NCBI GenBank assembly: GCA_003514055.1
Contig: DOSG01000002.1
Location: 13,985 to 77,984 of the forward strand
Direction: 5' to 3'
DNA: 64,000 nucleotides
Source of the DNA: Candidatus Yanofskybacteria bacterium
Lineage (GTDB): Bacteria > Patescibacteriota > Minisyncoccia > 2-02-FULL-40-12 > GWA2-44-9
Shown: in pieces, positions 8,982 through 62,039 of the stretch
Layout: each line of letters starts with the position of its first letter
Numbering within the stretch: position 1 is the stretch's first letter
Position numbers and translations under genes: made by a program
The notes under the pieces: generated by a model
The model's input: the letters and a program-made list of their open reading frames with translations, nothing else
Databases searched by the model: none
What the model was told of the DNA's origin: nothing

Positions 8982-8982
8982 A

Positions 8983-9168
8983 ATGCCAAAAAAATCGACA
9001 ATAGCCAGATCCAATAAGAAGCCGAAATATTCTACCAGAATTGTGAGAAGGTGTTTTATCTGCGGAAGGAAGCCTGGCTATATTGGTAAAGTTGGTCTAT
9101 GCAGAATTCACTTCAGAGAATTGGCTAGCGCTGGACTTCTGCCTGGCGTAAAGAAATCGAGTTGGTAA
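8983..9168 (+). CDS. rpsZ: 30S ribosomal protein S14 type Z (zinc-binding, C3H variant)
   Basis: 61 aa; CFICGRK...GLCRIHFRELA. Confidence 0.9.
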   Translation: MPKKSTIARSNKKPKYSTRIVRRCFICGRKPGYIGKVGLCRIHFRELASAGLLPGVKKSSW

Positions 9169-9191
9169 TTATTGTTAATTAATTATATAAA

Positions 9192-9593: not shown

Positions 9594-9616
9594 TTGGGAA
9601 TTAGCTAAATAATAAA

Positions 9617-10171: not shown

Positions 10172-10183
10172 GATTAAACTACA

Positions 10184-10534: not shown

Positions 10535-10539
10535 TAAAT

Positions 10540-11136: not shown

Positions 11137-11152
11137 AATACCTGCTAATCAT

Positions 11153-11626: not shown

Positions 11627-11640
11627 CTTAATCACTTACC

Positions 11641-12900
11641 TTGAATAAGCTAATCCAAATATTCAAAAAAGCTGACCTAAGAAATAAGGTTCTGTATATT
11701 TTCGCTTTGCTAGTAATCTCCAGATTAGTTTCAAATATTCCTATTCCAGCGATTGACGCTCTAAAACTAAAAGAATTCTTCTCCCAAAATCAATTTTTTG
11801 GAATGTTGAGTACTTTCACGGGCGGATCTTTATCCACTCTTTCTCTGGGTATGCTCGGCCTAGGTCCCTATATCACTGGCTCCATCATCATGCAGCTATT
11901 AACTATGATATTCCCATCTCTCGAGCAAATGTATAAATATGATGGCGAAGCTGGCAGGATGAGATTCAATCAATATTCGAGATGGCTGACTGTGCCATTA
12001 GCCATACTTCAGGGCTATGGATTTTTAACTATATTTATTCGTCAGGGCGTAATAAATCCGCTCAATTTAGTCGGATGGATTTCAGCTCTAGCGTCTATTG
12101 TCGCCGGTAGCATATTTTTGATGTGGTTAGGAGAATTAATAACTGAGAAGAATCTAGGCAATGGCGTGTCTCTGCTAATTCTTGCTGGTATAGTTGCTTC
12201 TTTTCCGGCTAGCTTGAGTCAGACCCTTTTCACGTATACAGCTAGCGATCTCTTTACGTACGCAGGCTTCGTCATTGTGGCGCTATTCGTTATAGTAGGC
12301 GTTGTTTATATATCTGAGGCTCAGAGAAATATCCCCATAAACTATGCGCGTAGAGTCAGGGGGATGAGAGTCTATGGCGGAGTCTCCACATATTTGCCTA
12401 TGAGAGTTAATAACGCCGGAGTTATTCCAATTATATTCGCCTTATCGATTTTAATGATACCCGGTATGCTGGCTAATTTTCTTTCAGCATCTAACATAGC
12501 TATAGTATCTCGAATTGCTACGTTCGTGAGAGACATAGTCCAGAATCAAGCCGTGTATGATATCTCCTATTTCTTACTCGTTGTTCTGTTCACTTACTTT
12601 TATACTGCAGTTACTTTTGATCCAAAATCGATTGCCGACAATGTTCAGAAGCAGGGAGGTTATATCCCAGGAATTAGGCCGGGACCAATGACTGCTCAGT
12701 TCTTAAACCACCTACTCAACAGAGTTACTTTAGTTGGAGCCGTATTCTTAGGCGTAATTGCTGTCTTGCCTAACGTTGTAAGGGGTGCGACTGGTATATC
12801 AACTTTCGCCGTTGGCGGAACGTCAATACTAATTGTCGTCTCGGTGGCGCTGGAAATTATGAAGCAGGTAGATGCTCAATTGTCGATGTACGAATACTAA
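11641..12900 (+). CDS. secY: Preprotein translocase SecY (apparent TTG start)
   Basis: 10 TM, SecY family; codon at 11641 is ttg. Confidence 0.92.
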   Translation: MNKLIQIFKKADLRNKVLYIFALLVISRLVSNIPIPAIDALKLKEFFSQNQFFGMLSTFTGGSLSTLSLGMLGLGPYITGSIIMQLLTMIFPSLEQMYKYDGEAGRMRFNQYSRWLTVPLAILQGYGFLTIFIRQGVINPLNLVGWISALASIVAGSIFLMWLGELITEKNLGNGVSLLILAGIVASFPASLSQTLFTYTASDLFTYAGFVIVALFVIVGVVYISEAQRNIPINYARRVRGMRVYGGVSTYLPMRVNNAGVIPIIFALSILMIPGMLANFLSASNIAIVSRIATFVRDIVQNQAVYDISYFLLVVLFTYFYTAVTFDPKSIADNVQKQGGYIPGIRPGPMTAQFLNHLLNRVTLVGAVFLGVIAVLPNVVRGATGISTFAVGGTSILIVVSVALEIMKQVDAQLSMYEY

Positions 12901-12914
12901 TTGTTAAATAAAAA

Positions 12915-12945
12915 TACCGCCCCAGCTGGGGCGGTATTTTTATTT
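12915..12945 (+). terminator. Rho-independent terminator after secY
   Basis: taccgcccc-agct-ggggcggta followed by tttttattt. Confidence 0.85.
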
Positions 12946-12977
12946 GTGGGCTATTTAAAAAATGTTATTATTCAGGC

Positions 12978-13667
12978 ATGGAAAGTCACCCTAGAAAGAA
13001 AGCGGTTATATTGATTGGTGCTCCTGGATCTGGCAAGGGCACTCAGGCCGAGATCTTGGCTAAGAAATTCAATCTCTTTCACTTGCAAACGTCTAGATTG
13101 ATTGAGCCAATCATAAATAATCAAGAACTCGTAAAAAATGATCCCGAGACTGCCGAGGTTAAGAGACTGTGGGATGCGGGGGAGCTTGTCCCTTTCACTT
13201 GGGTTGTGAAAATAATGTTTAATAAAATTGAGGAGGTAGATAGCGGCCCGATGGAGGGCATAGTATTTGACGGATCTCCACGTACAATTGACGAAGCTAG
13301 GCTGGAGATACCGCTACTTAACGAGATATTTAATCAAGATCAAGTTAAGATATTTTACATTAGGCTTGGGCCCGAAGAATCATTTAAGAGAAACAGCCGC
13401 CGGAGAATCTGCGAAGCTAATCAGCACCCAATACCGAATTTTGAAGAATTTAAGGATGTGGCGGTTTGCCCCCAAGATGGTAGTAGGCTGATTGTGCGCT
13501 CCCTTGATGATCCGGAAGTAATTAGAGAGAGGTATAAAGTTTTCCTAAGAAGAACTGAGCCTATTATCGGATATCTAAAAGAAACTGGCTATAAGGTATT
13601 TGAGATTAATGGTGAGCAATCGATAGATAAGGTCACGCAGGATATTTTATACGAGTTATCAAAATGA
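12978..13667 (+). CDS. adk: Adenylate kinase
   Basis: ILIGAPGSGKGTQA P-loop; adk follows secY as in spc operon. Confidence 0.93.
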   Translation: MESHPRKKAVILIGAPGSGKGTQAEILAKKFNLFHLQTSRLIEPIINNQELVKNDPETAEVKRLWDAGELVPFTWVVKIMFNKIEEVDSGPMEGIVFDGSPRTIDEARLEIPLLNEIFNQDQVKIFYIRLGPEESFKRNSRRRICEANQHPIPNFEEFKDVAVCPQDGSRLIVRSLDDPEVIRERYKVFLRRTEPIIGYLKETGYKVFEINGEQSIDKVTQDILYELSK

Positions 13668-28744: not shown

Positions 28745-31700
28745 ATGAATCTATCATCTATAAAACTAAAGGTCGCATCGCCAGAAGATATCTTATCGTG
28801 GTCATACGGTGAAGTTACAAAGCCGGAGACTATAAACTACAGAACTCAGAAACCCGAGAGAGAAGGGCTATTCTCAGAAGCTATCTTCGGTCCAACTAAG
28901 GACTGGGAATGTTATTGCGGTAAGTACAAGAGAATTCGATATAAGGGAATCATCTGCGATAGGTGCGGTGTTGAAGTCACGCGCTCAATTGTTAGAAGAG
29001 AGAGAATGGGACACATTAAGCTGGCCGCACCAGTCGCGCATATTTGGTTTTTGAGAGGTGTGCCGTCAAAGATTGCCGCCATACTTGGCGTCTCCTTGCC
29101 AGAACTTGAGAAGGTCGTCTACTTTGCCAGCTATGTAGTCATGAAAGTGAACGAAGACTTGAAGGCCGAAGCTATGAAGAGAGTTGAGGGCGAATTTAAG
29201 TCTAAGATAAAAAATCTAGCCGAAGGATCAGATGAGGAAAGGGCTTTGAAAGAGTTGAAAGACAGAGAAAGAAATAATCTTAGGAATTTAGTTAAGTACC
29301 AAATTATTTCAGAGCTAGACTTTAGAGATCTATCATTAAAATATGGTGAAGTTTTTGAAGCTGGTATCGGCGCTGAAGCTATCCGAAGATTGCTCGAAGA
29401 TATAAACCTTGAAGATGCAATCGTCAACTTAGAGGCTGAGGCCAAGAATGAGACCAATCCTCTGGAGGCCAAGAAGATGGCAAGAAGGATGAAGTTCTTA
29501 AGGGGTATGCATCGAGCCGGAATAAGGCCCGAGTGGATGGTTATAACTATTCTGCCGATTATCCCGCCATCACTAAGACCGATGGTGCCTTTGGATGGTG
29601 GAAGATACGCTACGTCCGATCTAAATGATTTGTACAGAAGAGTAATCAATAGAAATAATAGACTAAAGCATTTAATAGAATTAAAGGCGCCCGAAGTAAT
29701 TACCAAGAACGAGAAGAGAATGCTTCAAGAAGCCGTCGATGCTCTGATTGATAATTCCATGAGAAGAGGTCAGGTTACTACTGCCGCTTCGACTGGGCAG
29801 AAGAGGGCTCTCAAGTCTCTAGCTGACATGCTTAAAGGTAAACAGGGACGTTTTAGACAGAATTTACTTGGAAAAAGAGTAGATTACTCAGGCCGAAGCG
29901 TTATCGTAGTCGGTCCAGAGATGAGTATGGATGAATGCGGCTTGCCGAAACGTATGGCTCTAGAATTATTCAAGCCTTTTGTTATCGGTATTTTAATTAG
30001 AAAAGAATTAGCTCACAACATTAAGTCAGCCGGTAGATTGATTGAGCAAGAGACGCCAGACGTTTGGGCGGCTTTAGAAGAAGCCATGACCGAGAAGCTG
30101 GTATTGCTAAATCGTGCTCCAACATTGCACAGATTGTCTGTTCAAGCTTTTAAGCCAACTCTTATTGAGGGTAAGGCTATAAAGGTCCCAGCACTACCAA
30201 CGACAGCGTTTAACGCCGACTTCGACGGTGACCAAATGGCCGTTCATTTGCCATTGACTGACGAAGCTCAAAAAGAAGCTAGAGAATTGATGTTGGCTTC
30301 ACGAGGAATACTCAAGCCAGCTACTGGCGAGCCGGTAGCCGTTCCTAAGAATGACGTTGTCTTAGGTGTTTACTATCTAACCAGCATTAACGAGGGTGGA
30401 AAGGGCGAGGGTAAGTTTTTTGGAAGTACTGAGGAAGCCATGATGGCTCTAAGTAATGATTTTATAGAATTAAGATCTAAGATCAAAATTCAGAATCCTG
30501 ACAAGACCGAGGGGCAACCTAGATTGGTAGAGACAACAGTCGGACGTCTAATATTTAATCAGGCATTACCCGAAGGTCACAAGTTCGTAAATAGGACCAT
30601 AGCCAAACACGACCTAAAGAATATCGAATCAGATATCTGGGATGAGAACCCGTTTGAAGTCATAGTAAAGTTTCTTAATACGATTACGAGTCTTGGATTC
30701 AAGTACGCGACCATATCTGGATTGTCTTGGGGTATGGATGACATCAGAATCCCGAAAGAGAAGCCTCAAATCATCGAAGAGGCCGACAAGCTGACCGAAG
30801 AGAATATGCAATTATATGAACAGGGATTATTGACTGAGTATGAAAGAAAATCTAGAGCTATTGAAATATGGAATGGTGCTAAAAATAAACTGTCAGTCTT
30901 GGTCAAAAAATCGCTAGGCCCCAATGACTCGGCTTACATGATGGTTGAATCGAAAGCCAGAGGAAGCTGGACGGTGCTAGATCAAATGATGGGTATGAGA
31001 GGTATTTTCGCTAATCCGTCTGGAGAACTAATCGAACTACCAGTTAGGAGTTCTCTTAAGGAAGGCTTGGCCCCACTTGAATATTTCATTTCAACTCACG
31101 GCGCTAGAAAGGGATTAGTAGACACCGCTCTTAAGACTGCAACTGCGGGCTATTTAACCAGAAGACTAGTTGATGTTGCTCAGGATATCGTCATCACCGA
31201 AGAAGACTGTAAGGATAAAGAGGGATATATCTTGTATGCCGACGATAAAAAGTTTAGTGGTGATACTCTTGGTAAAAGAATTAAGGGGAGGGTTGTCATG
31301 GATGATATTCTTGGCGATGACGGCGAAGTCATAGTTAAGAAGGGCAAAATCGTAGACAAAGAAACAGCCAAGAGAGTAGAAAGCTTGAAACTTGAGAAGA
31401 TAAGAATCCGATCGTTGCTTAAATGTAAATCTCTAGCTGGTGTCTGCAGAATGTGCTATGGCTACGATCTATCAAAGAATAAATTAGTTGAGATTGGCGA
31501 GGCCGTAGGAGTTGTTACGGCTCAGGCAATTGGAGAGCCTGGCACCCAGTTAACCATGAGAACATTCCATACTGGAGGTGTTGCTGGTGGCGGTGCCGAC
31601 ATTACGATGGGTCTACCTCGCGTTGAAGAAATATTTGAGGCCCGACCGCCATCATTTAAGGCTCTTGTCTCTGATGTTGATGGTAAAGTCGTATCCGTGG

Positions 31701-32326
31701 AGGAGAAGGGAAAGCAGAAAATACTTACTATCCAAGTATCGGGTACAGGTGAGAATAGAGAATACGCAGTTTCTCCAAATATCGCCATCGCCGTAGTTGC
31801 CGGAGACTTTGTTACTCTTGGTCAGCAATTGAGCGAAGGTAACATAGACATTAAGGACTTATATCACGTCACAAAGGATGCCGACTTGGTTGCTAGAAAT
31901 ATAATCAGAGAAGTCCAAGCCATCTACTTCCCAACCGGAGATAGTATTAACGACAAACACGTTGAGCTCATTACTCGACAGATGTTTTCTAGAGTGAAGG
32001 TCCTAAATCCTGGCGATACAGATTTGCTATCCGGTGATATCATGGAGAAGAGGAGAGTCTGGCAAGAAAACGCCGTAGCCAAGGATGGAGATAAGCTTGA
32101 GGCGACCTATGAGCAATTACTATCTGGTATAACTAGAGTATCGTTAACGACTGATAGCTTCTTGTCGTCAGCCTCATTCCAAGAAACGGCCAAGGTATTG
32201 ATCGAAAGCGCGACAGTTGGTAAGGAGGACTTCTTAAGAGGTCTAAAAGAAAATGTTATTATTGGCCGCCTGATACCAGCTGGTACGGGCCTAAACAGCG
32301 AAATTGAGGAGATGATAGAGGAGTAA
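28745..32326 (+). CDS. rpoC: DNA-directed RNA polymerase beta' subunit
   Basis: NADFDGDQMAVH catalytic motif, Zn-binding Cys clusters. Confidence 0.97.
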   Translation: MNLSSIKLKVASPEDILSWSYGEVTKPETINYRTQKPEREGLFSEAIFGPTKDWECYCGKYKRIRYKGIICDRCGVEVTRSIVRRERMGHIKLAAPVAHIWFLRGVPSKIAAILGVSLPELEKVVYFASYVVMKVNEDLKAEAMKRVEGEFKSKIKNLAEGSDEERALKELKDRERNNLRNLVKYQIISELDFRDLSLKYGEVFEAGIGAEAIRRLLEDINLEDAIVNLEAEAKNETNPLEAKKMARRMKFLRGMHRAGIRPEWMVITILPIIPPSLRPMVPLDGGRYATSDLNDLYRRVINRNNRLKHLIELKAPEVITKNEKRMLQEAVDALIDNSMRRGQVTTAASTGQKRALKSLADMLKGKQGRFRQNLLGKRVDYSGRSVIVVGPEMSMDECGLPKRMALELFKPFVIGILIRKELAHNIKSAGRLIEQETPDVWAALEEAMTEKLVLLNRAPTLHRLSVQAFKPTLIEGKAIKVPALPTTAFNADFDGDQMAVHLPLTDEAQKEARELMLASRGILKPATGEPVAVPKNDVVLGVYYLTSINEGGKGEGKFFGSTEEAMMALSNDFIELRSKIKIQNPDKTEGQPRLVETTVGRLIFNQALPEGHKFVNRTIAKHDLKNIESDIWDENPFEVIVKFLNTITSLGFKYATISGLSWGMDDIRIPKEKPQIIEEADKLTEENMQLYEQGLLTEYERKSRAIEIWNGAKNKLSVLVKKSLGPNDSAYMMVESKARGSWTVLDQMMGMRGIFANPSGELIELPVRSSLKEGLAPLEYFISTHGARKGLVDTALKTATAGYLTRRLVDVAQDIVITEEDCKDKEGYILYADDKKFSGDTLGKRIKGRVVMDDILGDDGEVIVKKGKIVDKETAKRVESLKLEKIRIRSLLKCKSLAGVCRMCYGYDLSKNKLVEIGEAVGVVTAQAIGEPGTQLTMRTFHTGGVAGGGADITMGLPRVEEIFEARPPSFKALVSDVDGKVVSVEEKGKQKILTIQVSGTGENREYAVSPNIAIAVVAGDFVTLGQQLSEGNIDIKDLYHVTKDADLVARNIIREVQAIYFPTGDSINDKHVELITRQMFSRVKVLNPGDTDLLSGDIMEKRRVWQENAVAKDGDKLEATYEQLLSGITRVSLTTDSFLSSASFQETAKVLIESATVGKEDFLRGLKENVIIGRLIPAGTGLNSEIEEMIEE

Positions 32327-32333
32327 TCAACGA

Positions 32334-32372
32334 GATAAACAAAACCGCCCCTTTGGGGCGGTTTTGTTTATC
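32334..32372. terminator. Strong terminator (18-bp perfect stem) after rpoC
   Basis: gataaacaaaaccgcccc-ttt-ggggcggttttgtttatc. Confidence 0.85.
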
Positions 32373-32457
32373 TGCCACAATAATTATCCGCCTTTTTACT
32401 TGCTAACTTGGCCAGATTATTTGTATACTTATAAGGCAATTAAAATCATGGGAAGAC

Positions 32458-34664
32458 CAAAAAAGAACAAGGAAGTTATTAAGTCACGACCAGAGAAGGG
32501 TAGACTAGAAGGGCCATCGCGTTTCGATATAGGTCAGGAAACAAAAAATAGTATTTGGGGGATTTTAAGTTTTATTCTTGCCGTTGTTAGCGTTCTCAGT
32601 TTTATTGGCCGTGCCGGTCAGGGCGGAGCATTGTTTGATTCTTTTGCTCGTTCTCTTTTTGGCTGGGGATTTTTTATAATACCGGTAGCACTAGTTCTGC
32701 TGGGCGTAGCTTTTATTAAATCTATATCTAGAAAAATATACTTTAGCGCCGTATTTGGCACAATCCTATTCACTCTAGCTACGTTGGCTATATTTTTTAT
32801 TTTTGGAGAAGGCTCTTTCAATGTTCGCGTTACTCAGGGCGGCTACTTGGGTATTATACTGGGCTTGCCGCTTCTTAAGTCCGTTGGATTCGTAGCCTCG
32901 GCTATAATCTTGGTGGCGCTTATCCTTATATCGGTATTAGTGTCTTTGGATGTATCGATTACTGGACTATTTTACAAGAACGAAGTTGATGAAGAAGTTG
33001 ATGAGAAGAAGGAAAGACTGACAGATAATGTTGTGGTGAAGAGGAATAACGAAGTGGTTGAAGATAAAAAACCGATGCAAGAAGCTAGGCCGGTAGCTAG
33101 ACCAGTCAAGGCGGAAATTACCGACAAAGAATTCGTCATTAAGAACATGAAGCCTGGCAATTGGGCTCTACCACCAACAACCTTTTTGCAGGAAGATCAG
33201 GACTCTCCGGCTACGGGTGATATAAACGCCAGCGCCATGATCATCAAGAGAACCCTTGGGAACTTTGGCATAGACGTTGAGATGGGCGAAGTCTCAATTG
33301 GCCCGACAGTTACTCAGTATACGATGCGTCCAGCCGTGGGCGTAAAATTGTCTAAAATTACAACTTTAAATCCAGACTTATCTCTGGCTCTAGCCGCTCA
33401 TCCTCTTAGAATTGAGGCTCCAATTCCTGGCAAAGCTTTAGTTGGCATCGAAGTTCCTAATAAAAAAGTGGCTCTAGTTGGATTAAAGAATATGTTTGAG
33501 GAAGAAGATTTTCTTAAATCTAAAAATTTCTTACCACTAGCACTCGGAAGAGATGTTTCAGGTGGAGCTGTTTTCGCCGGTTTAGATAAGATGCCGCACT
33601 TACTCATCGCCGGAGCGACCGGTACTGGAAAGTCTGTAGCTATTAATTCGATTCTGTTGTCTATGTTGTATAAGCACTCTCCTGACGTCCTGAAAATGAT
33701 TTTGGTAGATCCAAAGAGAGTAGAGCTAAGCTTGTACAATGACATTCCTCATCTAATCACGCCAGTCATCACCGATAATAAGAAAGTTCTAGGAGCTTTA
33801 CGCTGGGCGGTGACTGAGATGGAACGCCGCTATGAAACATTGCAAAAAATGGGATCTAGAGATTTATTCTCATATAATGCCAAGATGACCGAGAAGTCGG
33901 AACCATTGATGCCCTTCATTGTTATAGTTATCGATGAATTGGCTGATCTTATGGCTTCTTATGGACGAGATGTTGAAGCGGCAATTGTTAGGCTGGCTCA
34001 AATGTCTCGTGCTGTCGGTATTCATTTGATAGTTTCAACTCAGAGGCCATCGGTAGAGGTTATAACTGGACTGATCAAGGCCAACATCACATCGAGGATT
34101 GGCCTACAGGTGGCGAGTCAAGTTGATTCAAGAACCATATTGGATATGGGCGGAGCCGAGAAATTGCTTGGCCGCGGTGATATGCTTTTCTTGTCGGGAG
34201 ATACATCCAAGCCTAGAAGACTTCAAGGGCCAATGGTAACCGAGAAAGAGGTAAAGGATGTCGTTAAATTCTGGAAGACTCAGGCCGAGAAGATGGAAGT
34301 AACCGAAGAAGCGGGGTTAACTATTGATTTCGAAGCCAAGTCTTCGAGCGGTGGCGGTGGATTTGGCGGTGATGGCGGCAATGAAGAAGACGATATGTAC
34401 GAAGAGGCCAAAGAGACCGTAATTCAAGCCGGAAAAGCTTCGGCTTCCTTGTTGCAGAGAAGACTAAGAGTCGGCTACGCTCGGGCCGCTAGATTACTAG
34501 ATATACTCGAGGATAAGGGCATCATCGGCCCGGGCGATGGCGCCAAGCCTAGGGAGGTTTATGTTAAGCCCGAAGGTATGGCGGTGTCTGGCCCCATGGC
34601 ATATGGCGAGTCAGGTATAAACGCCGATACACCCGAAGCCGAGAGACAAGAAGATCCAGTATAA
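32458..34664 (+). CDS. ftsK: DNA translocase FtsK/SpoIIIE (start set at MGRPKK, downstream of terminator)
   Basis: 4 N-terminal TM, Walker A GATGTGKSV, Walker B VIDELADL, C-terminal gamma winged helix. Confidence 0.9.
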
Positions 34665-52932: not shown

Positions 52933-53484
52933 ATGTTTATGTGGATTAGCTTGGGAATCTTGGTCGTGTTGGTTCTCTACGTTGTTGGAGTCTTTAATGG
53001 CCTAGTATCAGCCAGGAATAGAGTTAAGGAAGCTTGGTCAGACATTGACGTTCAATTAAAGCGCAGATATGATCTAATCCCTAATTTAGTAGAGACTGTT
53101 AAGGGATATGCTTCTCATGAGCAAGGTACTCTAGATGCTGTGATAAATGCCAGATCAAAAGCTATGGGCGCCCAATCTGTGACCGACAAGGCTGAAGCCG
53201 AGAATGTCCTCACCGGAACTCTAAAAAGTTTATTTGCTTTATCGGAAAATTATCCTCAGCTAAGAGCAGTTGAGAGCTTCACTAAATTGCAAGATGAGCT
53301 ATCTGATACCGAAAACAAAATCCAGGCCGCAAGAAGATTCTATAATGGCAATGTTTTAGTATTAAATAACAAGATCGAACAATTTCCTACTAATGTATTC
53401 GCTTCGATGTTCGGATTTGTTAAGGAGAAATTCTTCGAATTGGCCGACGCGAAAGAGAAAGAGCCCGTTAAGGTTGCTTTCTAG
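52933..53484 (+). CDS. lemA: LemA family protein
   Basis: N-terminal TM; LemA core RYDLIPNLVETVKGYASHE. Confidence 0.85.
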   Translation: MFMWISLGILVVLVLYVVGVFNGLVSARNRVKEAWSDIDVQLKRRYDLIPNLVETVKGYASHEQGTLDAVINARSKAMGAQSVTDKAEAENVLTGTLKSLFALSENYPQLRAVESFTKLQDELSDTENKIQAARRFYNGNVLVLNNKIEQFPTNVFASMFGFVKEKFFELADAKEKEPVKVAF

Positions 53485-53494
53485 CATCGTGCGC

Positions 53495-55240
53495 ATGGGC
53501 CTCAACAATAAATACAAAACCGGCTTAGCTATCGTGGCTTTGTCGGTTTTTGCTTTGTTTGGACTGACTGCTAATGCTCAGGCGGAGAAAATCATTAATT
53601 TCGATGCCTCGATCAAGGTCAACGCTGATTCTAGTATTAATGTCGTTGAGAAGATAAAATATGATTTTGGAAATATTGAGAAGCATGGCATATACAGGGA
53701 TATAGAGACGCAGGGCAAATTAAAAGTATCAAACGTATCTGTAGTTGATGAGCGGGGTAAGCCTTACGAATTCGAGATTGCTAAATCTGGGGACACTCAG
53801 AGTATCAAGATAGGCAGTGCCAATCTCACTATATCGGGCATACATACATATGTGATAAGTTACTCGGTCAATGGAGCTATAGGGTATTTCGATAATTTTG
53901 ACGAGATCTACTGGAATGCAACGGGCGATGGGTGGGCTGTTCCGATAGAAAGTGCAGTAGCGACTGTCACTTTGCCGCAAGTGATACAAGAAAGTTATGT
54001 CCGGCAAGCCTGTTATGCTGGCAATCGTGGCGCGACTACTCCTTGTAAGTTTGCTGGATACATTGCCAACTCGCTAGATCAAGTCTCGGCCTTTAACTTC
54101 TCTCAAAATAATCTGCCTGCCGGCGAGGGACTAACTGTAGCCGTTGGATTCCCGAAAGATATCGTATCTATCCCTCCGCCAACATTTTTAGAAAGAAATC
54201 CCAGCATCAGATTCTTCGTTTTTCTTCTGCCAATATTCGTCTTCGCTTTAATGTTCTTGCGTTGGAATAAGGTGGGCCGAGATCCTAAGGGTAGGGGCGT
54301 CATTATTCCTCAGTACGATGCACCAAGCGGGCTAACTCCGCTGGAGGTTTCCGCGATAATGCGCCAAAGAATCAGTAACTCTGATATATCGGCGGAGATA
54401 GTGTATCTTGCCACTAAGGGTTTTATAAAAATTATCAAAACTACCGACAAGGGACTGATTTTCTCTTCGGACGATTATATTTTCAAACAGCTTAGAAATG
54501 ATCTATCATCTCTCGAGGATCCGGTTGATAAGAAAATTATGACCAGTCTTATGGCCGGTGCAGATAGCGGATCATCCGAAATTAAATTGTCAGATCTAAA
54601 GAACGCATTCTACACCTCTATCCCTAGTATAAAAAACGAGACTTACGGCTTTTTGATAGAGAATGGACATATAAAAAGCAATCCAGAGAAAATCATTACC
54701 AAATATATTGTCAGCTCTTTCCTTGCTACGGCAGCTGCGCTGGGTGGACTAATTTGGGCCGGAGCTAGTTGGGACTTAGACGAAGTCCTTGTCGGCTTGT
54801 CATCTCTTAGTATTGTCCTCTCTGGAGTTATCGCGATTATATTCAGCATGTTAATGCCAGCCAGAACAGTCAAAGGGCAGGAGTCGAAGGAATATGTTTT
54901 AGGCCTTAAAGAATATTTACAGATTGCCGAGAAGGATAGAATCGCGTTTCATAATGCACCAGAAAAAAAGCCAGAAGTATTCGAGAAGCTTCTTCCGTAT
55001 GCGATGGTCCTTGGCGTAGACAAGGCCTGGGCTAAGGAGTTCAAGGATATATACACAACGCCGCCAAGTTGGTATTCTGATTCATCCGGTGGCGCCTTCA
55101 ATTCGATATTGTTTATCAATAGCCTGAATAGCTTTAATTCTGCGGCTACGAGTAGCCTTGGATCTAGTCCCGGTGGAGGAAGCAGTGGGGGAGGATTTTC
55201 TGGTGGCGGTATGGGCGGAGGTGGCGGTGGAAGTTGGTAG
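53495..55240 (+). CDS. DUF2207-family membrane protein (LemA partner) with Gly-rich C-terminus
   Basis: Signal peptide, central TMs, C-terminus SSGGGFSGGGMGGGGGGSW; conserved LemA-DUF2207 gene pair. Confidence 0.7.
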   Translation: MGLNNKYKTGLAIVALSVFALFGLTANAQAEKIINFDASIKVNADSSINVVEKIKYDFGNIEKHGIYRDIETQGKLKVSNVSVVDERGKPYEFEIAKSGDTQSIKIGSANLTISGIHTYVISYSVNGAIGYFDNFDEIYWNATGDGWAVPIESAVATVTLPQVIQESYVRQACYAGNRGATTPCKFAGYIANSLDQVSAFNFSQNNLPAGEGLTVAVGFPKDIVSIPPPTFLERNPSIRFFVFLLPIFVFALMFLRWNKVGRDPKGRGVIIPQYDAPSGLTPLEVSAIMRQRISNSDISAEIVYLATKGFIKIIKTTDKGLIFSSDDYIFKQLRNDLSSLEDPVDKKIMTSLMAGADSGSSEIKLSDLKNAFYTSIPSIKNETYGFLIENGHIKSNPEKIITKYIVSSFLATAAALGGLIWAGASWDLDEVLVGLSSLSIVLSGVIAIIFSMLMPARTVKGQESKEYVLGLKEYLQIAEKDRIAFHNAPEKKPEVFEKLLPYAMVLGVDKAWAKEFKDIYTTPPSWYSDSSGGAFNSILFINSLNSFNSAATSSLGSSPGGGSSGGGFSGGGMGGGGGGSW

Positions 55241-55282
55241 GTTTAAGCTTTATCTTTGGGCCAATATTGATATAATTCGATT

Positions 55283-56170
55283 ATGAATTTGTACACCCAC
55301 AAAGATTCCAATATTCGCAAAACATGGCTACTTATGACCATGTTTTTGCTGTTTGTAATCGCTGTTGGTTGGTTATTCGGTTTTGCATTGAATAAGCCGG
55401 TTATTCTTTATGGTGCAATCATCCTTAGCTTAGTTATGAATTTTACGGCCTATTGGTACTCAGACAAAGTTGCATTGGCTATGTCAGGTGCCGTTCCCGT
55501 AACCCACGAATCTCACGAGAATTTCTATCATGTGGTTGAAAATCTATGCATTACTGCCGGCCTGCCAGTTCCTAAACTATATATAATTCCTGGCGGACAG
55601 ATAAACGCATTCGCTACTGGAAGGAATGCCGAACATGCGGCCATAGCAGTTACTGAAGGCGCATTGCAGAAATTAGACAAGAATGAGCTCGAAGGAGTAC
55701 TAGCCCACGAGCTGTCGCATATTGGGAACAGAGATATTCTACTTCAGTCGGTCATCGTTGTTTTGGCTGGTTTAATTTCTATTATGGCTGACTGGTTTCT
55801 ACGTTCTATGTTCTGGGGTGGAGATGATCGCGATAACAAAAACGGGGCGATCATGCTTGTCGGGATTATAGCTTCGATCCTAGCGCCGATAGCGGCCATG
55901 ATTATCCAGTTAGCAATTTCTAGAAAAAGAGAATTTTTAGCTGATGCGTCTGGAGCACTGCTCACTCGTTATCCCGAGGGTTTGGCCAGCGCTCTTGAGA
56001 AAATTTCTCAAGACCAGCATCCTATGCGAAGGGCTTCGAGTGCGAATGCACATTTGTATATATCAAATCCGTTTCGCGGCAAGGCAAAAACGAGCTGGTT
56101 TTCTAAGATGTTCATGACTCATCCGCCGATAGAAGAAAGAGTGGCCGCTTTACGTGGCTTAAAAATTTAA
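55283..56170 (+). CDS. htpX: Zinc metalloprotease HtpX (M48)
   Basis: HELSHIGNRD HExxH, 4 TM. Confidence 0.9.
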   Translation: MNLYTHKDSNIRKTWLLMTMFLLFVIAVGWLFGFALNKPVILYGAIILSLVMNFTAYWYSDKVALAMSGAVPVTHESHENFYHVVENLCITAGLPVPKLYIIPGGQINAFATGRNAEHAAIAVTEGALQKLDKNELEGVLAHELSHIGNRDILLQSVIVVLAGLISIMADWFLRSMFWGGDDRDNKNGAIMLVGIIASILAPIAAMIIQLAISRKREFLADASGALLTRYPEGLASALEKISQDQHPMRRASSANAHLYISNPFRGKAKTSWFSKMFMTHPPIEERVAALRGLKI

Positions 56171-56218
56171 TTACTGGGAAAAAGATATTTAGATAAAATT
56201 GGTATTATTAAAAAACTT

Positions 56219-56305
56219 GGAGAGGTCGCATAGTGGTCTAGTGCGCCGCCCTGGAAAGGCGGTTTACTCGCAAGGGTATCGAGGGTTCGAATCCCTCCCT
56301 CTCCG
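56219..56305 (+). tRNA. tRNA-Ser (anticodon GGA)
   Basis: GGAGAGG...CCGCC-CTGGAAA-GGCGG...long variable arm...GAGGG-TTCGAAT-CCCTC-CCTCTCC-G. Confidence 0.85.
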
Positions 56306-56403
56306 CATTGACAGTTGAATATGTCTTAAGGCATATTCAATTGGTGCTGTTAGTTAGGCGGTAGTTAGCCAAACTTTTGTGACGATAAAAATTTAGTCGA
56401 GAC

Positions 56404-56461
56404 CGAATCCCTTCCATGGTCCTCCGAAGTCTTGACGAAGGAGATCCTCTCCGCATCGACA
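56404..56461 (+). pseudogene. Degenerate duplicate of the tRNA-Ser 3' half (T-loop plus acceptor) with a 32-nt insertion; att-like repeat
   Basis: cgaatccct...cctctccgcatcgaca versus tRNA cgaatccctccctctccgcattgaca (15/16 in the terminal segment). Confidence 0.45.
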
Positions 56462-56584
56462 ATTTAGTATCGGAGTCAACCCATTTATCTATGACGAATG
56501 TGCGACCCGAGTACATAAATTACAAACAAAAATACACGAATTATTCGTGTATTTTTGTTTGTCTAAAATTGCTAAAATGTATTT

Positions 56585-57826
56585 ATGGATAATAACGATG
56601 AATATAAAAACCATCACTATGTTCCTCAATGGTATCAAAAGAAATTTATGTTACCAGGCGAATCTGAGCTTTTTTACTTAGACATGAAGCCTAATTTTGC
56701 AATTGACTCTAAAGGAAATAAACACCAAAAAAGATCTTTATGGAAACAAGGGAGTAAAAAATGTTTTGTTGAAGAAGATTTATATACAACAAAAATTCCT
56801 AATATTAAACCAGAAGATATTGAAAAGCATTTCTTTGGACAAATAGACGTTAAAGGAAAGCCTGCCGTAGAATATTTCGAAGATTTTGATTACCCATTAA
56901 AAACATGGGGTACGTCACTTGAAGATATTTTAGTTTATATGAGTGCGCAAAAATTGCGTACTCCGAAAGGACTTTCTTTTTTAAGTAATAAGATTGGGAG
57001 TACAAACAAAGATGATATTTTAAGCACAATGATTGGGCTTAGTCGACTTCATGCTGCGATATGGACGGAATGCGTTTGGTTGATAGCTGATGCATCACAG
57101 TCAGAAACAAAATTCATAATTTCAGATCATCCTGTAACCGTCTATAATCGAGAATGTGGCCCTAGTTCTCAATCGTGTAGAGAGTCGAATGATCCTGATA
57201 TATGGCTTCAGGGCACGCATACAATCTTTCCTCTTTCTTTAGACAAGGTACTTATCTTGACTAACCTGTCTTGGGTAAGAAATCCATACCAAAAAGCAAC
57301 AGACCTTCGTCCGAACTCAAACCCTTTTCGAAATGCAATATTTAGATTTACAGATGTTCAAGTAAGAAGACACTTGGATGAGCAGGAAGTTCGTGAGATT
57401 AATTTTATTATTAAAAATAGAGCGAGACGATTTGTTGCGGCGGCAAAAAGTGAATGGCTTTATCCTGAGAAATATATCTCAAAATCTAACTGGAATAATT
57501 ATGGACATGGTTATTTATTAATGCCAGACCCAAGAGCTATACATTGGGGCGGAACCATAATATGGGGCGGTGGACCTGGCGGGTATGGTTCTATGGATGA
57601 ATATGGAAGATTGCCAGGGGATCCTGATTTCGAGGGAGGATCAAATAAAGATATGGAGTATAAAACGCTACCCTGGTTTCAAGGAGAGTTCGCAGAATTA
57701 TTTGGTCCATATAGAAGAGGTCGCTGCATGCAAACTCTAGAAATTGAGAAAGAACGTGATAGCGATGATTCTCATAAATATCACTTAGACTTAAAGAAAA
57801 AGAAATACAAGGATAGAAAAAAGTAA
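56585..57826 (+). CDS. DUF4238-family protein (family with a reported single-gene anti-phage member); 413 aa
   Basis: N-terminal HHYVPQWYQKKF matches the DUF4238 hallmark HYVPQ[FW]YL[KR]xF; very AT-rich gene in a tRNA-flanked island. Confidence 0.6.
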   Translation: MDNNDEYKNHHYVPQWYQKKFMLPGESELFYLDMKPNFAIDSKGNKHQKRSLWKQGSKKCFVEEDLYTTKIPNIKPEDIEKHFFGQIDVKGKPAVEYFEDFDYPLKTWGTSLEDILVYMSAQKLRTPKGLSFLSNKIGSTNKDDILSTMIGLSRLHAAIWTECVWLIADASQSETKFIISDHPVTVYNRECGPSSQSCRESNDPDIWLQGTHTIFPLSLDKVLILTNLSWVRNPYQKATDLRPNSNPFRNAIFRFTDVQVRRHLDEQEVREINFIIKNRARRFVAAAKSEWLYPEKYISKSNWNNYGHGYLLMPDPRAIHWGGTIIWGGGPGGYGSMDEYGRLPGDPDFEGGSNKDMEYKTLPWFQGEFAELFGPYRRGRCMQTLEIEKERDSDDSHKYHLDLKKKKYKDRKK

Positions 57827-58229
57827 TTCAGTCGCTAGTTGAGAATACCTCTGGTAAAGTTGAAGGGCCGCCTGCAAATGCATTTACGTTGGTGAATTTG
57901 AAAGATAATCTTGTATCCGTAAAAGTTCTGGGGAAGAGTGGATTAAGTTACGAAATTAGAATCTAATACTGGAAAGACAGATAGTTTATGGCTATACTGT
58001 AATTGTTCGGATTTCTTCTACGACCCAATGTTTCCTTCAGGATGCCTTTGGACGTAACAGCGCTTTCCCGTTTCACTATTACGTGCCACCTTCCCCACGC
58101 CCCTGGCTTCATGCATTTTTGTTTGGCGCGATCTTTTCGAATTAGACATGATGATGGCGGAGCCCATATCTAATATAGGGCTACTCGCCAACTTGATGTA
58201 TAATACTGTAAATAACTAAATTTAAGCAT

Positions 58230-59579
58230 ATGTCTCAAGAAGAATTTGATCCACACGACGAAAAATACAATAAGGTTAAAGATCTTCCGTGGCATGAAAG
58301 AGGAAGATATATTGACTTAGAAAGCGGGGGCTTTGTCGAAAAAACCGTGGTCGAGAATTCAGAGTTAAATCAAAGGTTGGCTGACTTGGTAAATAGGGCA
58401 GTTGATATCTTAAAACGAGATGTAAGAGATAGCGGGATAGTAGAGGAAGAAGTTAAATTAAAACACGACGAAGCTGTAAAAAATAAAGATTGGGATGGGG
58501 CCATGGTGTATGATAAAATATTGCGCCCTTTTCGTGACGCGAGGAATCTACCCTTGGTAATATTCAATAGTGAGACTGGAAGTGGTGAATTCCTTAATTA
58601 TTCAGAGAAAGCCCAAGCTATTTTTTTAGATTTAGTTGATCCAAAAGATATTGAGGTTGTTGCAGAAATTTTGGGAGACAACAGATTCTCCAATCGTTTT
58701 GAGTTAATTCGGCGAATGGATGAATCAACTTTGCAATCAGCATATGATCATATAAAAAATACAAATCTTTGGATTGCGGGAGAGTTTGTGGATGGTTCCA
58801 ACGACAAGGATTTTAAGATTAGAGTACTTAGGGAAATTTCTGAGAAGATAGACGATCCCGGCACCGTATCTGTAATAAAAATGCGCATTGGGAAATTCTT
58901 AATTCAGAACGGATTTGAAAAAGATTTTTTTGATTTATGTGATTCAGGCCTCTTAGATACAAATCTTGGGATATATTTGAAGAGTATCAGGTCAAATGAG
59001 ATTTTGTTCGAGATAGCAAAAAGATCTAAGTATCCATTCGATGTATTAAGGTGTGTGTCAGATCCCGCTATCTTTGCTAAGATAATCGAGACTCAAGCAA
59101 AAGATTTTACTTTCGAGAATGAAAGAGCGAGAGACGCGCTTATCCCGCGAGTAAGAGGGTTAAAACATGCCTTAGAAAATGAGCCGATTATAGTCGGCGT
59201 CGGCGAGATTGAAGATAGGAATAAATTTATTGTTACTTTACCTATTTTTGATCCTCACGGGGTAGACGACCAACAATTAAGCGAGCAATCAAGATATTTT
59301 ATAGCTTGGGGTGGTTTGCGTTCGGGAGGTGGTACTCATAAATCTATTTTAGCGAGCTTAAAAGAGGAGCACCCGCATCTTTCTGACAGTATTACTGTCG
59401 GTGGGTATATTAGCATTGATAACAGAGATGATAAGGTAATCGTTGTATTTAATAACCACAGCGGCGATTTTGGTTATTACGATCTAAATATTGTAGAGAA
59501 ATTTAGGCCTCAAATAGAGAAAGCGTTGAAAGACAGCCTGGGTAAAGAAGTCGAGGTTACAATGGAGTCCTCAAGTTAG
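58230..59579 (+). CDS. Hypothetical 449-aa protein in the same island
   Basis: Long ORF, AT-rich, no family recognised. Confidence 0.55.
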   Translation: MSQEEFDPHDEKYNKVKDLPWHERGRYIDLESGGFVEKTVVENSELNQRLADLVNRAVDILKRDVRDSGIVEEEVKLKHDEAVKNKDWDGAMVYDKILRPFRDARNLPLVIFNSETGSGEFLNYSEKAQAIFLDLVDPKDIEVVAEILGDNRFSNRFELIRRMDESTLQSAYDHIKNTNLWIAGEFVDGSNDKDFKIRVLREISEKIDDPGTVSVIKMRIGKFLIQNGFEKDFFDLCDSGLLDTNLGIYLKSIRSNEILFEIAKRSKYPFDVLRCVSDPAIFAKIIETQAKDFTFENERARDALIPRVRGLKHALENEPIIVGVGEIEDRNKFIVTLPIFDPHGVDDQQLSEQSRYFIAWGGLRSGGGTHKSILASLKEEHPHLSDSITVGGYISIDNRDDKVIVVFNNHSGDFGYYDLNIVEKFRPQIEKALKDSLGKEVEVTMESSS

Positions 59580-59728
59580 CTTCGAACTTTATTAGTTGGT
59601 TGTTTTACAATTTCTAGCGGATTATTTTTTGAAGATTAAGACGTAGGGGAATGTGGCATGGAATTGAAAAGATAAAAATGCTAAATTTAAAGCAACAACA
59701 AAATAATTAATAATAATCGAACAAATCT

Positions 59729-60040
59729 ATGGAAAAAAATTGTCAGGCATGTGGAATGCCCCTAACCAAAAAAGAAGACTTTGATAATGGAGACGAGAAT
59801 TCAAATTTTTGTCTGTATTGCGTTAATACCGATGGTAGCGTTAAGTCGTGCGAAGAAATTTTCGAGGGCGGTGTCCAATTCTTTATGACTCAGATTGAAG
59901 GCGATCGACAAATGGCAGAAAAAGTAACCAGAAAGAATATGGGAGAGCTATCGTATTGGCGGGACAAAAATTGCGAGGTTCTAAAAGGCGAAATGGCGAC
60001 CGATGAAGAATTCGCCGAAGTGATGAAAAAATTGAGCTAA
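59729..60040 (+). CDS. Small zinc-ribbon protein (CxxCGMPL...CxxC)
   Basis: NCQACGMPL...FCLYCV motif typical of the putative zinc-ribbon family. Confidence 0.55.
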   Translation: MEKNCQACGMPLTKKEDFDNGDENSNFCLYCVNTDGSVKSCEEIFEGGVQFFMTQIEGDRQMAEKVTRKNMGELSYWRDKNCEVLKGEMATDEEFAEVMKKLS

Positions 60041-60053
60041 AGATCTTTAGTCT

Positions 60054-60824
60054 ATGGATTATTGGCAAAGTATTATTCTAGGTATAGTCGAGGGACTTAC
60101 GGAATTTCTTCCTATTTCTTCTACGGCCCATTTAATTTTAGGTGGGAAAATTCTCAACATCGTCCAGACGGAGTTTGTAAAAAGTTTTGAAATCGTTATT
60201 CAGCTTGGTGCAATCTTGGCGGTTATATGGCTGTATTGGAAGAGAATAGTGTCTAGCAAGGAGATAATTAAAAGAATTATCGTTGCCTTTCTGCCAACGG
60301 CAATTTTCGGCTTTCTGCTCTATAAGATATTCAAGGGTTATTTAATGGAAAACTTGGCCGTCATTGTTTGGGCGTTAATACTGGGAGGTATTCTTCTTAT
60401 TGTCTTTGAATATTGGCATAAGGAAAAGGCTGATGCCGCTGAGAATATTGAAGATATCTCTTATAAAAATTGTTTTCTAATCGGAACTTGTCAGGCAATC
60501 GCCATGGTGCCCGGCGTCTCACGTGCTGGTGCTACAATCTTGGGCGGGTTATTCTTGGGCATAAAGAGAAAAACCATTGTAGAGTTTTCTTTTCTTTTAG
60601 CTGTGCCGACAATGCTAGCGGCAACTGGCTATGATTTATTAAAAACTGGGTTTACTTTTTCGGCCGATCAATTTGGCCAACTTTCTGTGGGGCTCATTGT
60701 GTCTTTCTTGGTTGCTATTCTAGCTATTAAGTTTTTACTTCGCTATATCCAACAACACGATTTTAAATTGTTCGGTCTGTACCGAATTATTATTGGCTTA
60801 ATTTTCTTGCTAATTATCCTGTGA
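60054..60824 (+). CDS. uppP: Undecaprenyl-diphosphatase
   Basis: BacA/UppP motifs (GVSRAGATI, 8 TM). Confidence 0.9.
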   Translation: MDYWQSIILGIVEGLTEFLPISSTAHLILGGKILNIVQTEFVKSFEIVIQLGAILAVIWLYWKRIVSSKEIIKRIIVAFLPTAIFGFLLYKIFKGYLMENLAVIVWALILGGILLIVFEYWHKEKADAAENIEDISYKNCFLIGTCQAIAMVPGVSRAGATILGGLFLGIKRKTIVEFSFLLAVPTMLAATGYDLLKTGFTFSADQFGQLSVGLIVSFLVAILAIKFLLRYIQQHDFKLFGLYRIIIGLIFLLIIL

Positions 60825-60864
60825 TCCTCCGCATAAGTCTGAGTGATGATGAGTAAGTCTTGCA

Positions 60865-60903
60865 AATCAGGGGAGGATCTTGAGATCCTCCCCTGATTTT
60901 TCT
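60865..60903 (+). terminator. Rho-independent terminator after uppP (15-bp stem)
   Basis: aatcaggggaggatc-ttga-gatcctcccctgatt then tttctttt. Confidence 0.85.
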
Positions 60904-60938
60904 TTTCGGGCGAGCTTGAGGCGGTTTAATGATGTGCT

Positions 60939-62039
60939 ATGATTGGACAGTATATGGTTGATGAAATCAATAAAATTGAACTTGAGCATTTAGGCTATGA
61001 TGATTTTTTTGAATCAGAATGGCAGTCTTTGGCTTTACCGCAATGCATAGTGGCTCGAGTTGTAGCTGAACACAAAGAAGCATACAAGGTTAAGACTGCT
61101 AAGAAAGAATATCTGGCCAAAATAACGGGAAAACAAATATTTGATGCCACAAAAAGAGAAGATTATCCGGCTGTTGGCGATTGGGTAGCTATAGCCGAAG
61201 CCGATGAAGAAAGGGCGATTATCTATAAAATCCTACCTAGGAGAACAATACTTAAAAAGAAATACAGCAATAAGCAAGATACTCAAATTATAGCTACTAA
61301 CATTGATGTCGCTTTTATCGTGGAATCAGTAGATAGGGATTACAATTTGAATCGTTTTGAGAGATATCTTGTCTTGGCCAGTGAGGGGAAAATCAAATCG
61401 ACTATCGTATTAAACAAAATCGATCTAATTTCAAAAGATGAATTGGATCTGAAAATTGATCAAATAAGAGAAAGGTTTAGCGATGTCGACATTATCGTAG
61501 CTAGCACTGTTGCTGAACAGGGGCTAGACGAATTGATGAACTATATAAAGGGAGGCAAGACATATTGTTTTCTTGGATCGTCTGGCGTGGGCAAGTCATC
61601 TTTGATAAATAAGTTATTAAAAAAGGACGAGATTGAGACTAGGGAGATAGGCCAGTCAACTGGTAGGGGGAGGCACACAACCACCGTTAGGGAAATGTAT
61701 TTCTTAGAAAATGGCGGAATCGTAATTGATAATCCAGGCACACGAGAGGTTGGAGTGGCTGACGCCGGCGACGGCATAGAAAATATATTTAACGAAATAA
61801 CTGCCTTATCCGAGGAGTGTAAATATGTTGATTGCACCCATATGCAGGAGCCTGGATGCGCTGTTTTGAAAGCCGTCGAGAGTGGGGAATTAGATGACGC
61901 TAAATACCAAAACTATATTAGATTAAGAAAAGAAAATGAGTATTATGGAATGTCCAATCTTGATAGAAAGCAGAAGGATCGTAAATTTGGCCAATTTGTA
62001 AAAAAAGCACTAGATCAGTTGAAGGATCTCGAATCGTAA
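60939..62039 (+). CDS. rsgA: Ribosome small-subunit biogenesis GTPase RsgA (YjeQ)
   Basis: Circularly permuted GTPase: NKIDL, GSSGVGKSSLIN, C-terminal CxxC..H..C zinc knuckle. Confidence 0.9.
   Translation: MIGQYMVDEINKIELEHLGYDDFFESEWQSLALPQCIVARVVAEHKEAYKVKTAKKEYLAKITGKQIFDATKREDYPAVGDWVAIAEADEERAIIYKILPRRTILKKKYSNKQDTQIIATNIDVAFIVESVDRDYNLNRFERYLVLASEGKIKSTIVLNKIDLISKDELDLKIDQIRERFSDVDIIVASTVAEQGLDELMNYIKGGKTYCFLGSSGVGKSSLINKLLKKDEIETREIGQSTGRGRHTTTVREMYFLENGGIVIDNPGTREVGVADAGDGIENIFNEITALSEECKYVDCTHMQEPGCAVLKAVESGELDDAKYQNYIRLRKENEYYGMSNLDRKQKDRKFGQFVKKALDQLKDLES

Follow-up and report, generated by a model that had tools for sequence, protein, structure and literature searches.

A predicted remnant of a serine-recombinase element with an intact DUF4238 gene at tRNA-Ser(GGA) of a Candidatus Yanofskybacteria genome

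Elements moved by large serine recombinases, such as SCCmec (CcrAB at rlmH) and prophages of the phiC31/Bxb1 type, use the 3' end of a conserved gene as their docking site. Strong resistance of E. coli to T7 has been reported for one DUF4238 protein encoded in a P2 hotspot (Rousset et al. 2022, PMC9122126); the tested system, pFR101, comes from the P2-prophage hotspot of E. coli TA007 and its sequence is listed in Table S2A of the same paper. The literature found under the term 'DUF4238' gives no mechanism or structure for this validated anti-phage family. Here, a DUF4238 gene was analyzed in a stretch of 64,000 nucleotides (nt) of contig DOSG01000002.1 (Candidatus Yanofskybacteria bacterium, candidate phyla radiation (CPR)), hereafter the window. 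A preliminary description of this DNA had proposed a tRNA-associated, AT-rich defense island at 56219-60050 and had mentioned a report of a stand-alone anti-phage DUF4238 protein, which proved to be the P2-hotspot, T7-resistance study cited above. Our analysis points to a decayed integrative element with a plausible, predicted stand-alone defense gene (probability about 0.6).

When the window was compared with related CPR contigs (cited below by L numbers) using blastn, a single block was shared with L087, 88.2 % identical over 1386 nt (56448-57833, plus strand, against L087 4310-5693), and the same limits were observed with L090 (77.5 % to L090 24-1388). The block begins within a degenerate copy of the tRNA-Ser(GGA) 3' end, ends 7 nt past the DUF4238 stop codon and has unrelated flanks on both sides. 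It is common to the DUF4238/serine-recombinase elements of other CPR contigs and would be the surviving part of such an element, ~1.4 kb in length. Judged from these alignments, the demonstrably foreign segment is about 56307-57833 and not 56219-60050; the proposed extension of the island to 60050 failed because homology to related elements ends at 57833.

The complete unit in the related contigs consists of a tRNA-Ser gene, a leader of ~125 nt with a terminator hairpin, DUF4238, a convergent large serine recombinase and variable restriction-modification (R-M) cargo. The recombinase (430-441 amino acids (aa)) has Resolvase, Recombinase and Zn_ribbon_recom domains and matches the PHROG integrase phrog_95 at 1e-61. 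Its stop codon abuts that of DUF4238, or overlaps it by 4 nt, in L087/L088 (95 %), L090 (83 %) and L091-093/L099 (75 %), and when 80 metagenome loci were scanned a recombinase was found at the same position in L099, L102, L104, L105 and L110. DUF4238 and the recombinase travel together, since their pairwise identities co-vary across five loci (85.6/83.2, 76.8/78.6 and 77.8/77.8 %). An intact tRNA gene lies directly upstream on the same strand, namely Ser-TGA in L087/088 and L091-093/L099, Ser-CGA in L110 and L115, Ser-GGA in L006 and tRNA-Gln in L105, while L090 and L100 start with a tRNA-Ser-type 3' end. The tRNA sequences vary by host and the DNA following them is conserved. This module appears to define an element family that has a serine recombinase, uses tRNA genes as docking sites and brings R-M cargo along; no description of it was found in the literature under the term 'DUF4238'. 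The module occupies L087 4229-6980, L090 1-2721, L091 9814-12570, L105 1-2766 and L110 513-3364, with tRNA-Ser in four of these and tRNA-Gln in L105. In the case of L114, a 65-aa C-terminal recombinase stump (2088-2264) stands directly after DUF4238 and may be an intermediate of the decay proposed for the window.

The insertion target and left border in the window is a functional tRNA-Ser(GGA) gene on the plus strand, correctly called in the preliminary description (56219-56306 by ARAGORN; 56219-56305 by Rfam RF00005, 60.2 bits). A degenerate, displaced copy of its 3' part is located at 56404-56456 (plus strand) and is made up of the T-loop CGAATCCCT, an insertion of ~30 nt and the acceptor strand CCTCTCCGCAT. 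The duplication of the tRNA 3' end, which had also been pointed out earlier, was reproduced in three ways: 21 of 25 nt are identical between 56298-56322 (the last 9 nt of the tRNA and 16 nt of flank) and 56446-56470, the T-loop 9-mer is found again at 56404, and the pattern CCTCTCCGCATYGACARTT (19-nt core) occurs twice in the window against 0.04 expected. The duplicate is a true recombination footprint: together with the next 125 nt, it shares homology with the site in other CPR contigs where an intact tRNA-Ser joins the DUF4238-recombinase element. The former label of a classic attachment (att) footprint therefore stands as regards recombination and falls as regards the tyrosine-integrase scheme, since the mover elsewhere is a large serine recombinase. 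As the same sequence follows a complete tRNA in the relatives, the second copy is probably the original tRNA/element junction. This old junction is now decayed and 148 nt away from the tRNA body, the working tRNA ends in a fresh copy, and both copies are on the same (upstream) side of the cargo.

A stuffer of ~100 nt (56307-56403, plus strand) separates the displaced 3' end from the intact tRNA; it starts with ATTGACAGTTGAATAT, similar to the element arm ATCGACAATTTAGTAT, and contains a 16-bp hairpin at 56312-56343. A comparable order was observed in L100 (1-285), where the 3' end of tRNA-Ser is intact and is followed by a terminator hairpin, a fragment of the tRNA end in inverted orientation, a degenerate direct copy (~186-206) and finally DUF4238. 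L100 seems to have arrived at the layout of the window independently, which suggests repeated events at the site. The tRNA end also has an exact match of 11 nt at 23302. The third degenerate copy once suggested at 60829-60842 (plus strand) was discarded as a chance-level likeness, as a 14-mer search allowing up to 3 mismatches gave 7 matches against 5.5 expected and did not retrieve 60829.

The gene at 56585-57826 (plus strand) starts with MDNNDEYKNHHYVPQWYQKKF and encodes an intact 413-aa protein, a putative stand-alone defense effector. Its membership of DUF4238, at first proposed from the N-terminal motif, was confirmed with Pfam: PF14022 matched in two stretches at 67.8 bits (E-value 1.3e-18; gathering cut-off 27), the best one aligning residues 163-288 with profile positions 184-279 of 281. 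The motifs HHYVPQWYQ (residues 10-18) and SDHPV (residues 180-184) show a conservation of 90 % or more across 150 family members, align to HHHFLSQCY and SDNPV in the E. coli protein, and agree with the PF14022 patterns H-x-[VL]-[PS]-Q-x-[YW] and S-D-x-P. The protein collection contained 2567 relatives, of which the best 120 were full-length with 57-95 % identity and came mostly from Patescibacteria, in addition to some Verrucomicrobiales and Limnocylindria. Methanosarcinaceae and a few SEC-C fusions were added when a member with 45 % identity served as the query of a further search. In the 150-sequence alignment the mean column identity was 48 %, and D181, P183, N188, R125, Q122 and several Trp and Pro residues were invariant. 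The invariant H11, R125 and D181-x-P183, together with a lysine-rich C-terminal tail, permit the speculation that the protein is an enzyme acting on nucleic acids. When compared with the closest relative (L087, 95 % amino acid identity), the ratio of nonsynonymous to synonymous divergence (dN/dS) was 0.037 with a dS of 0.80. Given this ratio and the full-length open reading frame (ORF), the DUF4238 of the window is regarded as a working gene and not as debris.

An AlphaFold2 model built with the 150-sequence alignment reached a predicted local distance difference test score (pLDDT) of 91.2 and a predicted template modeling (TM) score of 0.92; it replaced a run with 20 sequences that was unusable (pLDDT 44.6). 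In a viral structure library only one fold match of the model was significant (E-value 8.9e-7; target-based TM 0.57), namely a protein of 298 aa from the Stenotrophomonas phage Smp131. In this P2-like phage (Peduoviridae) the sole 298-aa coding sequence is annotated as DUF4238 and comes just after the integrase. In the region 29458-32551 of Smp131 (L177, NC_023588) this gene lies between a tyrosine integrase and an SOS-response-associated peptidase gene, again at the recombinase end of an element. No solved structure matched the predicted fold, a PDB sequence search with the DUF4238 family profile gave a best E-value of 0.98, and the protein had no match in PHROGs.

When the 150-sequence family was aligned with the E. 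coli anti-T7 protein using hhalign, a probability of 93 % and an E-value of 3.5e-7 were obtained, covering window residues 3-220 only, and pairwise BLASTP gave 29 % identity over 83 aa (E-value 6e-4). DefenseFinder lists the E. coli system as Rst_DUF4238. On profile and model evidence, membership of the DUF4238 superfamily is solid, and equivalence to the tested E. coli system is not.

The leader of the gene is also conserved. The 140 nt before the ATG (56448-56584) are 87.6 % identical to L087, and the leader is under constraint because this identity is kept despite a synonymous divergence of 0.8 in the gene. Its non-coding core (56457-56521, plus strand; GACAATTTAGTATCGG ... GCGACCCGAGT) is a candidate recombinase-binding arm or regulatory site; selection on the leader could reflect a role as operator, RNA element or att arm. 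It opens with the 16-mer GACAATTTAGTATCGG, which is exact in L091/L099, has one mismatch in L087 and could be the element-side arm for the recombinase.

A perfect palindrome with an A-run and a T-run, found by inverted-repeat search, follows at 56522-56562, 23 nt before the ATG. The palindrome given before as 18 bp (56523-56561) is real and perfect, and only its size had been underestimated: the arms (56522-56541 and 56543-56562) are 20 nt each and 100 % complementary. The terminator scan flags it on the minus strand, and function on the plus strand is assumed from its symmetry, with an A-run or T-run on either side. Equivalent hairpins with different stems were found in L087, L090, L091, L105 and L110, and a comparable one was seen by eye in L006; RNAalifold predicted 15 pairs across six loci, 6 of them with compensatory changes. 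The simplest reading is that the palindrome is an element-borne hairpin, similar to an intrinsic terminator, which would shield DUF4238 from read-through of the tRNA. A TAAAAT box is present 6 nt before the ATG (56574-56587) with no visible Shine-Dalgarno sequence, and similar spacing is observed in L087, L090 and L091; the position of the box hints at a leaderless mRNA.

The order LemA-HtpX-tRNA-Ser(GGA) is kept in relatives L007-L012, which hold other genes downstream. That the relatives do not share the genes of the window at this locus agrees with the earlier view of an insertion; in no relative, within 10 kb, was uppP adjacent, as had been expected for htpX-tRNA-Ser followed directly by uppP. 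The HtpX of the window is most similar (64-68 %) to proteins from Yanofskybacteria and Paceibacterota genomes; HtpX identity to the closest relatives is only 60-68 %, and for this reason no true empty site was seen. In L011 (Harrisonbacteria, 10971-13407) tRNA-Ser(GGA) is directly followed by a type II R-M pair, made up of an N6_N4 methyltransferase with HEAT repeats and a restriction enzyme resembling CfrBI. L006 (CPR, 6022-10961) carries tRNA-Ser(GGA), a 151-aa ORF, a canonical 359-aa DUF4238, a 413-aa DUF4238 (74 % to that of the window) and a fused PARIS AriAB (3.8e-65), and L010, L009 and L008 have unrelated genes at the tRNA site. The 3' flank of tRNA-Ser(GGA), as far as gene content indicates, is a variable site accepting different defense cargo.

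Neighbors of DUF4238 were also defense-rich at a larger scale. Among 118 immediate neighbors of the 80 metagenome copies, the Pfam families detected most often were Resolvase (6), LexA_DNA_bind with Peptidase_S24 (6), N6_N4_Mtase (5), HNH (4), Phage_integrase (2) and D12 methyltransferase (2), as well as single Type ISP, GmrSD and Cap15 proteins. No gene co-occurs with DUF4238 at all loci, and the window copy is alone between the tRNA and a 400-nt gap. The LexA/S24 and methyltransferase matches belong to the same proteins, fusions of 490-620 aa divergent from DUF4238 and encoded on the minus strand (L097 3375-4856, L101 3903-5666, L118 983-2467, L126 4021-5886 and L128 988-2526). Their LexA/S24 part is 40-70 % identical between loci, and the methyltransferase class varies (N6_N4, but D12 in L128). 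Each fusion has a variable gene converging on it, which in L101 (8e-48) and L126 (9e-31) encodes a type II restriction enzyme. The arrangement resembles an R-M system in which the methyltransferase is joined to a self-cleaving repressor of the LexA type, always beside a conserved DUF4238; as separate restriction enzymes are present, DUF4238 would be a neighbor of complete R-M systems and not their nuclease.

Taken together, we propose that an element inserted at the 3' end of tRNA-Ser(GGA) and that the feature is its decayed left end. Only 56448-57833 would have survived, comprising the leader and the intact DUF4238 behind the degenerate 3' end of the tRNA, while the recombinase and cargo would have been lost. 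A later event would then have put a fresh tRNA 3' end and ~100 nt upstream of the old junction. This joint history of insertion, decay and a later tRNA-end event, as shown by the comparison of sequences, is considered highly probable. DUF4238 would have been kept by selection after its vehicle decayed, probably with its own promoter behind an insulating terminator. For the retained gene, remote homology and neighborhood give about an even chance that it is a stand-alone effector against phages or other mobile elements. Defense is the best-supported function, in view of superfamily membership, carriage on mobile elements and defense-rich neighborhoods. One plausible defense gene is thus present, in place of the multi-gene defense island proposed earlier, as homology ends at 57833 and no link of the other two genes to DUF4238 was found elsewhere.

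Several observations weigh against this reading. Identity to the tested E. coli protein is ~24 % over 193 aligned columns, and the latter lacks an equivalent of the ~190 conserved residues at the C-terminus of the window family; since the protein is only a remote relative with an extra conserved C-terminal half, we infer its anti-phage function. A dN/dS of 0.04 and 57-95 % identity across phyla are unusually conservative for a defense gene, and no recognized defense gene stands beside the window DUF4238, unlike in R-M/PARIS defense islands. tblastn of the protein against phage genomes gave two weak matches below significance (E-value 0.3, 15 % of the query), both to one Erwinia phage with two records. 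PADLOC (PADLOC-DB 2.0) matched none of the DUF4238, 449-aa and zinc-ribbon proteins; this negative is uninformative because the canonical 359-aa DUF4238 protein of L006 is also unmatched. With regard to the vehicle, no right-hand att site was identified in the window or in relatives, where neither a tRNA-end repeat nor an inverted GACAATTTAGTATCGG was found within 10 kb at the far end. The search for an integrase came back empty: with four recombinases as tblastn queries, the whole window yielded neither a serine recombinase nor a remnant of one, and a Pfam scan of the ORFs from the tRNA as far as rsgA revealed no integrase, the rest of the window not being searched for tyrosine integrases. 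As no recombinase or remnant is present in the window, we infer its loss.

The GC content of 56307-60053 is 37.5 % against a window mean of 42.4 % (standard deviation 2.0 in equal-sized windows), and not ~33 % as first stated, though it is the second-lowest of 603 equal-sized windows; the shift is modest. The DUF4238 gene (36.2 %) is close to its nearest relative (34.5 %), which speaks for a foreign origin. No right-hand boundary can be drawn from composition because uppP (38.7 %) and rsgA (38.5 %) are almost equally low.

The 396 nt at 57834-58229, at the place of the recombinase in relatives, are non-coding with a GC-richer core. tblastn with 4 recombinases and 248 DUF4238 proteins revealed no consistent remnant of either in this stretch. 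A second DUF4238 pseudogene in 57827-58229 was rejected, as frames and strands were inconsistent and E-values were at least 0.003 across the 248 queries. A relic of the uppP 5' end was likewise set aside as marginal: 57981-58027 resembles uppP codons 11-26 (60084-60130) with 72 % identity over 47 nt, and the E-value of 0.001 refers to a tiny search space. This likeness may be due to chance or may have been left by a former start of uppP. Rfam detected only the tRNA and no further RNA family over 55000-61500. After uppP there is a perfect 17-bp GC-rich hairpin with a T-run (60864-60899) which resembles a strong intrinsic terminator. Upstream of the tRNA, the longest-ORF call for DUF2207 (53393-55240) overlaps the LemA ORF by 92 nt (region 52933-55240); database calls start near 53495, and the start codon is ambiguous.

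Two ORFs follow DUF4238 on the plus strand, as was described before. The 449-aa protein (58230-59579) is a lineage-restricted orphan, examined by Pfam and homologue context, whose membership of the element is not demonstrated. It had no Pfam, PADLOC or significant PDB match (best PDB E-value 0.43), and one marginal PHROGs match (phrog_17362, unknown function, E-value 0.0082) was not treated as meaningful. The 103-aa protein (59729-60040) is a Zn_ribbon_2 protein (PF12674, E-value 4e-12) with no PADLOC or PHROGs match and no link to DUF4238 found.

That DUF4238 and these two genes (56585-60040) form one three-gene defense system or island is improbable. The genes share a strand, the low GC is continuous and the lowest in the window, and the two extra genes are of unknown function; however, homology with related elements does not extend beyond 57833, 400 nt of non-coding DNA lie between the genes, and the low GC runs on into uppP and rsgA. 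In addition, neither protein had a tblastn match in the 80 metagenome DUF4238 loci, both genes are absent from the encoding-contig loci L004, L006 and L087-L093, and the 449-aa protein has 8 homologues (30-40 % identity) which, in the two contexts examined (L094, L096), lie among housekeeping genes such as DHFR and GatB without DUF4238. The two genes are therefore best described, from these comparisons, as neighbors and not as demonstrated parts of the element. Least credible of all is the view that there is no island, the DNA being native and vertically inherited and the tRNA-end likeness an old local duplication. The missing integrase, the modest shift in composition and the similarly low GC of uppP and rsgA would suit it, but not the 88 % nucleotide identity to contigs with different flanks (RuvX in L087, His_Phos_1 in L091), the sharp breakpoints at the tRNA end and the stop codon, or the other downstream genes of relatives with LemA-HtpX-tRNA-Ser.

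The remaining alternatives concern the function of DUF4238. It could be a life-cycle or maintenance factor of the element (a recombination directionality factor, a target-site accessory or an addiction toxin), left over in the window and not yet decayed, and we hold this to be unlikely, if the most serious competitor. The stop codons of the two genes abut or overlap at all linked loci, their identities co-vary, DUF4238 is always att-proximal beside the tRNA, and purifying selection is very strong, which is seen more typically in core genes of an element than in defense cargo. Against this, no recombinase accompanies the intact, conserved gene in the window or in the majority of the 80 metagenome loci, many homologues are in recombinase-free defense islands, and an unneeded gene should show lesions after a dS of 0.8 since the split from L087; members of the superfamily also act alone against T7 in E. 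coli (PMC9122126). It is improbable, to a similar degree as the three-gene system, that DUF4238 is a nuclease-type effector restrained by methylation, with its partner methyltransferase elsewhere in the genome. A methyltransferase adjoins in only ~8 of 62 metagenome loci with a called upstream neighbor, no related methyltransferase is present in the window, and the classes differ while DUF4238 stays conserved. Such a checked nuclease would explain why a methyltransferase is divergently upstream in L004/L098, why LexA-S24-methyltransferase fusions are so placed in L097, L101, L118, L126 and L128/129, and why N6_N4 or ParB-methyltransferases are on the recombinase elements of L087, L091, L105 and L110; at the fusion loci, however, a separate gene converges on the methyltransferase and proves to be a bona fide type II restriction enzyme in L101 (8e-48) and L126 (9e-31), which makes the R-M pair complete without DUF4238.

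Beyond the preferred reading of a decayed element with one plausible defense gene, a bolder possibility, which is doubtful at present, is that the 413-aa proteins are a distinct and unusually conserved DUF4238 subfamily (>2,500 clusters in CPR, other bacteria and archaea). They would be the fixed 'sentinel' of two previously undescribed vehicles, acting as a damage- or infection-gated effector with new chemistry, and the window copy would be a domesticated survivor. One vehicle would be the tRNA-targeting serine-recombinase elements (mostly at tRNA-Ser) with swappable R-M cargo; the other would be R-M islands in which a methyltransferase fused to a LexA/S24 self-cleaving repressor is divergent from DUF4238. 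Control might be exerted by the conserved leader or by a LexA-type operator.

The result for the window itself is modest, a single plausible defense gene in a decayed element. It would mean that CPR bacteria, which are regarded as defense-poor, exchange such genes on serine-recombinase elements at tRNA-Ser, and that one gene can outlast its vehicle under strong selection. The large conserved subfamily, with a confident model (pLDDT 91) and invariant residues, is a practical base for mutagenesis.

Compared with the E. coli DUF4238 system, the window protein shares PF14022 and the motifs H-H-[YF]-[VL]-x-Q-x-Y, (L/I)RTP and F-I-x-S-D-x-P-V. Both are stand-alone genes on integrating mobile elements, and the fold of the window protein matches the DUF4238 of a P2-like phage. 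The window protein differs in length (413 aa versus 309 aa) with an extra C-terminal region, its vehicle would be a serine-recombinase element at tRNA-Ser instead of a P2/P4 hotspot, and its host is a CPR bacterium. As in R-M/PARIS defense islands, homologues adjoin type I, II and IV restriction systems, a fused PARIS AriAB, HEC-05/GmrSD-like proteins and Cap15. With tRNA-associated islands and prophages the locus has in common insertion at a tRNA 3' end, a duplicated 3' end, GC below that of the host and variable content, including defense genes, at the same tRNA in relatives. It departs from them in that the intact relatives have, instead of a tyrosine integrase, a large serine recombinase, which is missing from the window, and in that both copies are on one side with no far-end repeat. 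The closest parallel in machinery is with the SCCmec and phiC31/Bxb1 types, which share the Resolvase, Recombinase and Zn_ribbon_recom domains, a specific docking site where a conserved gene ends, and variable cargo; here, unlike in those elements, the target is a tRNA gene and a conserved DUF4238 lies between the att site and the recombinase.

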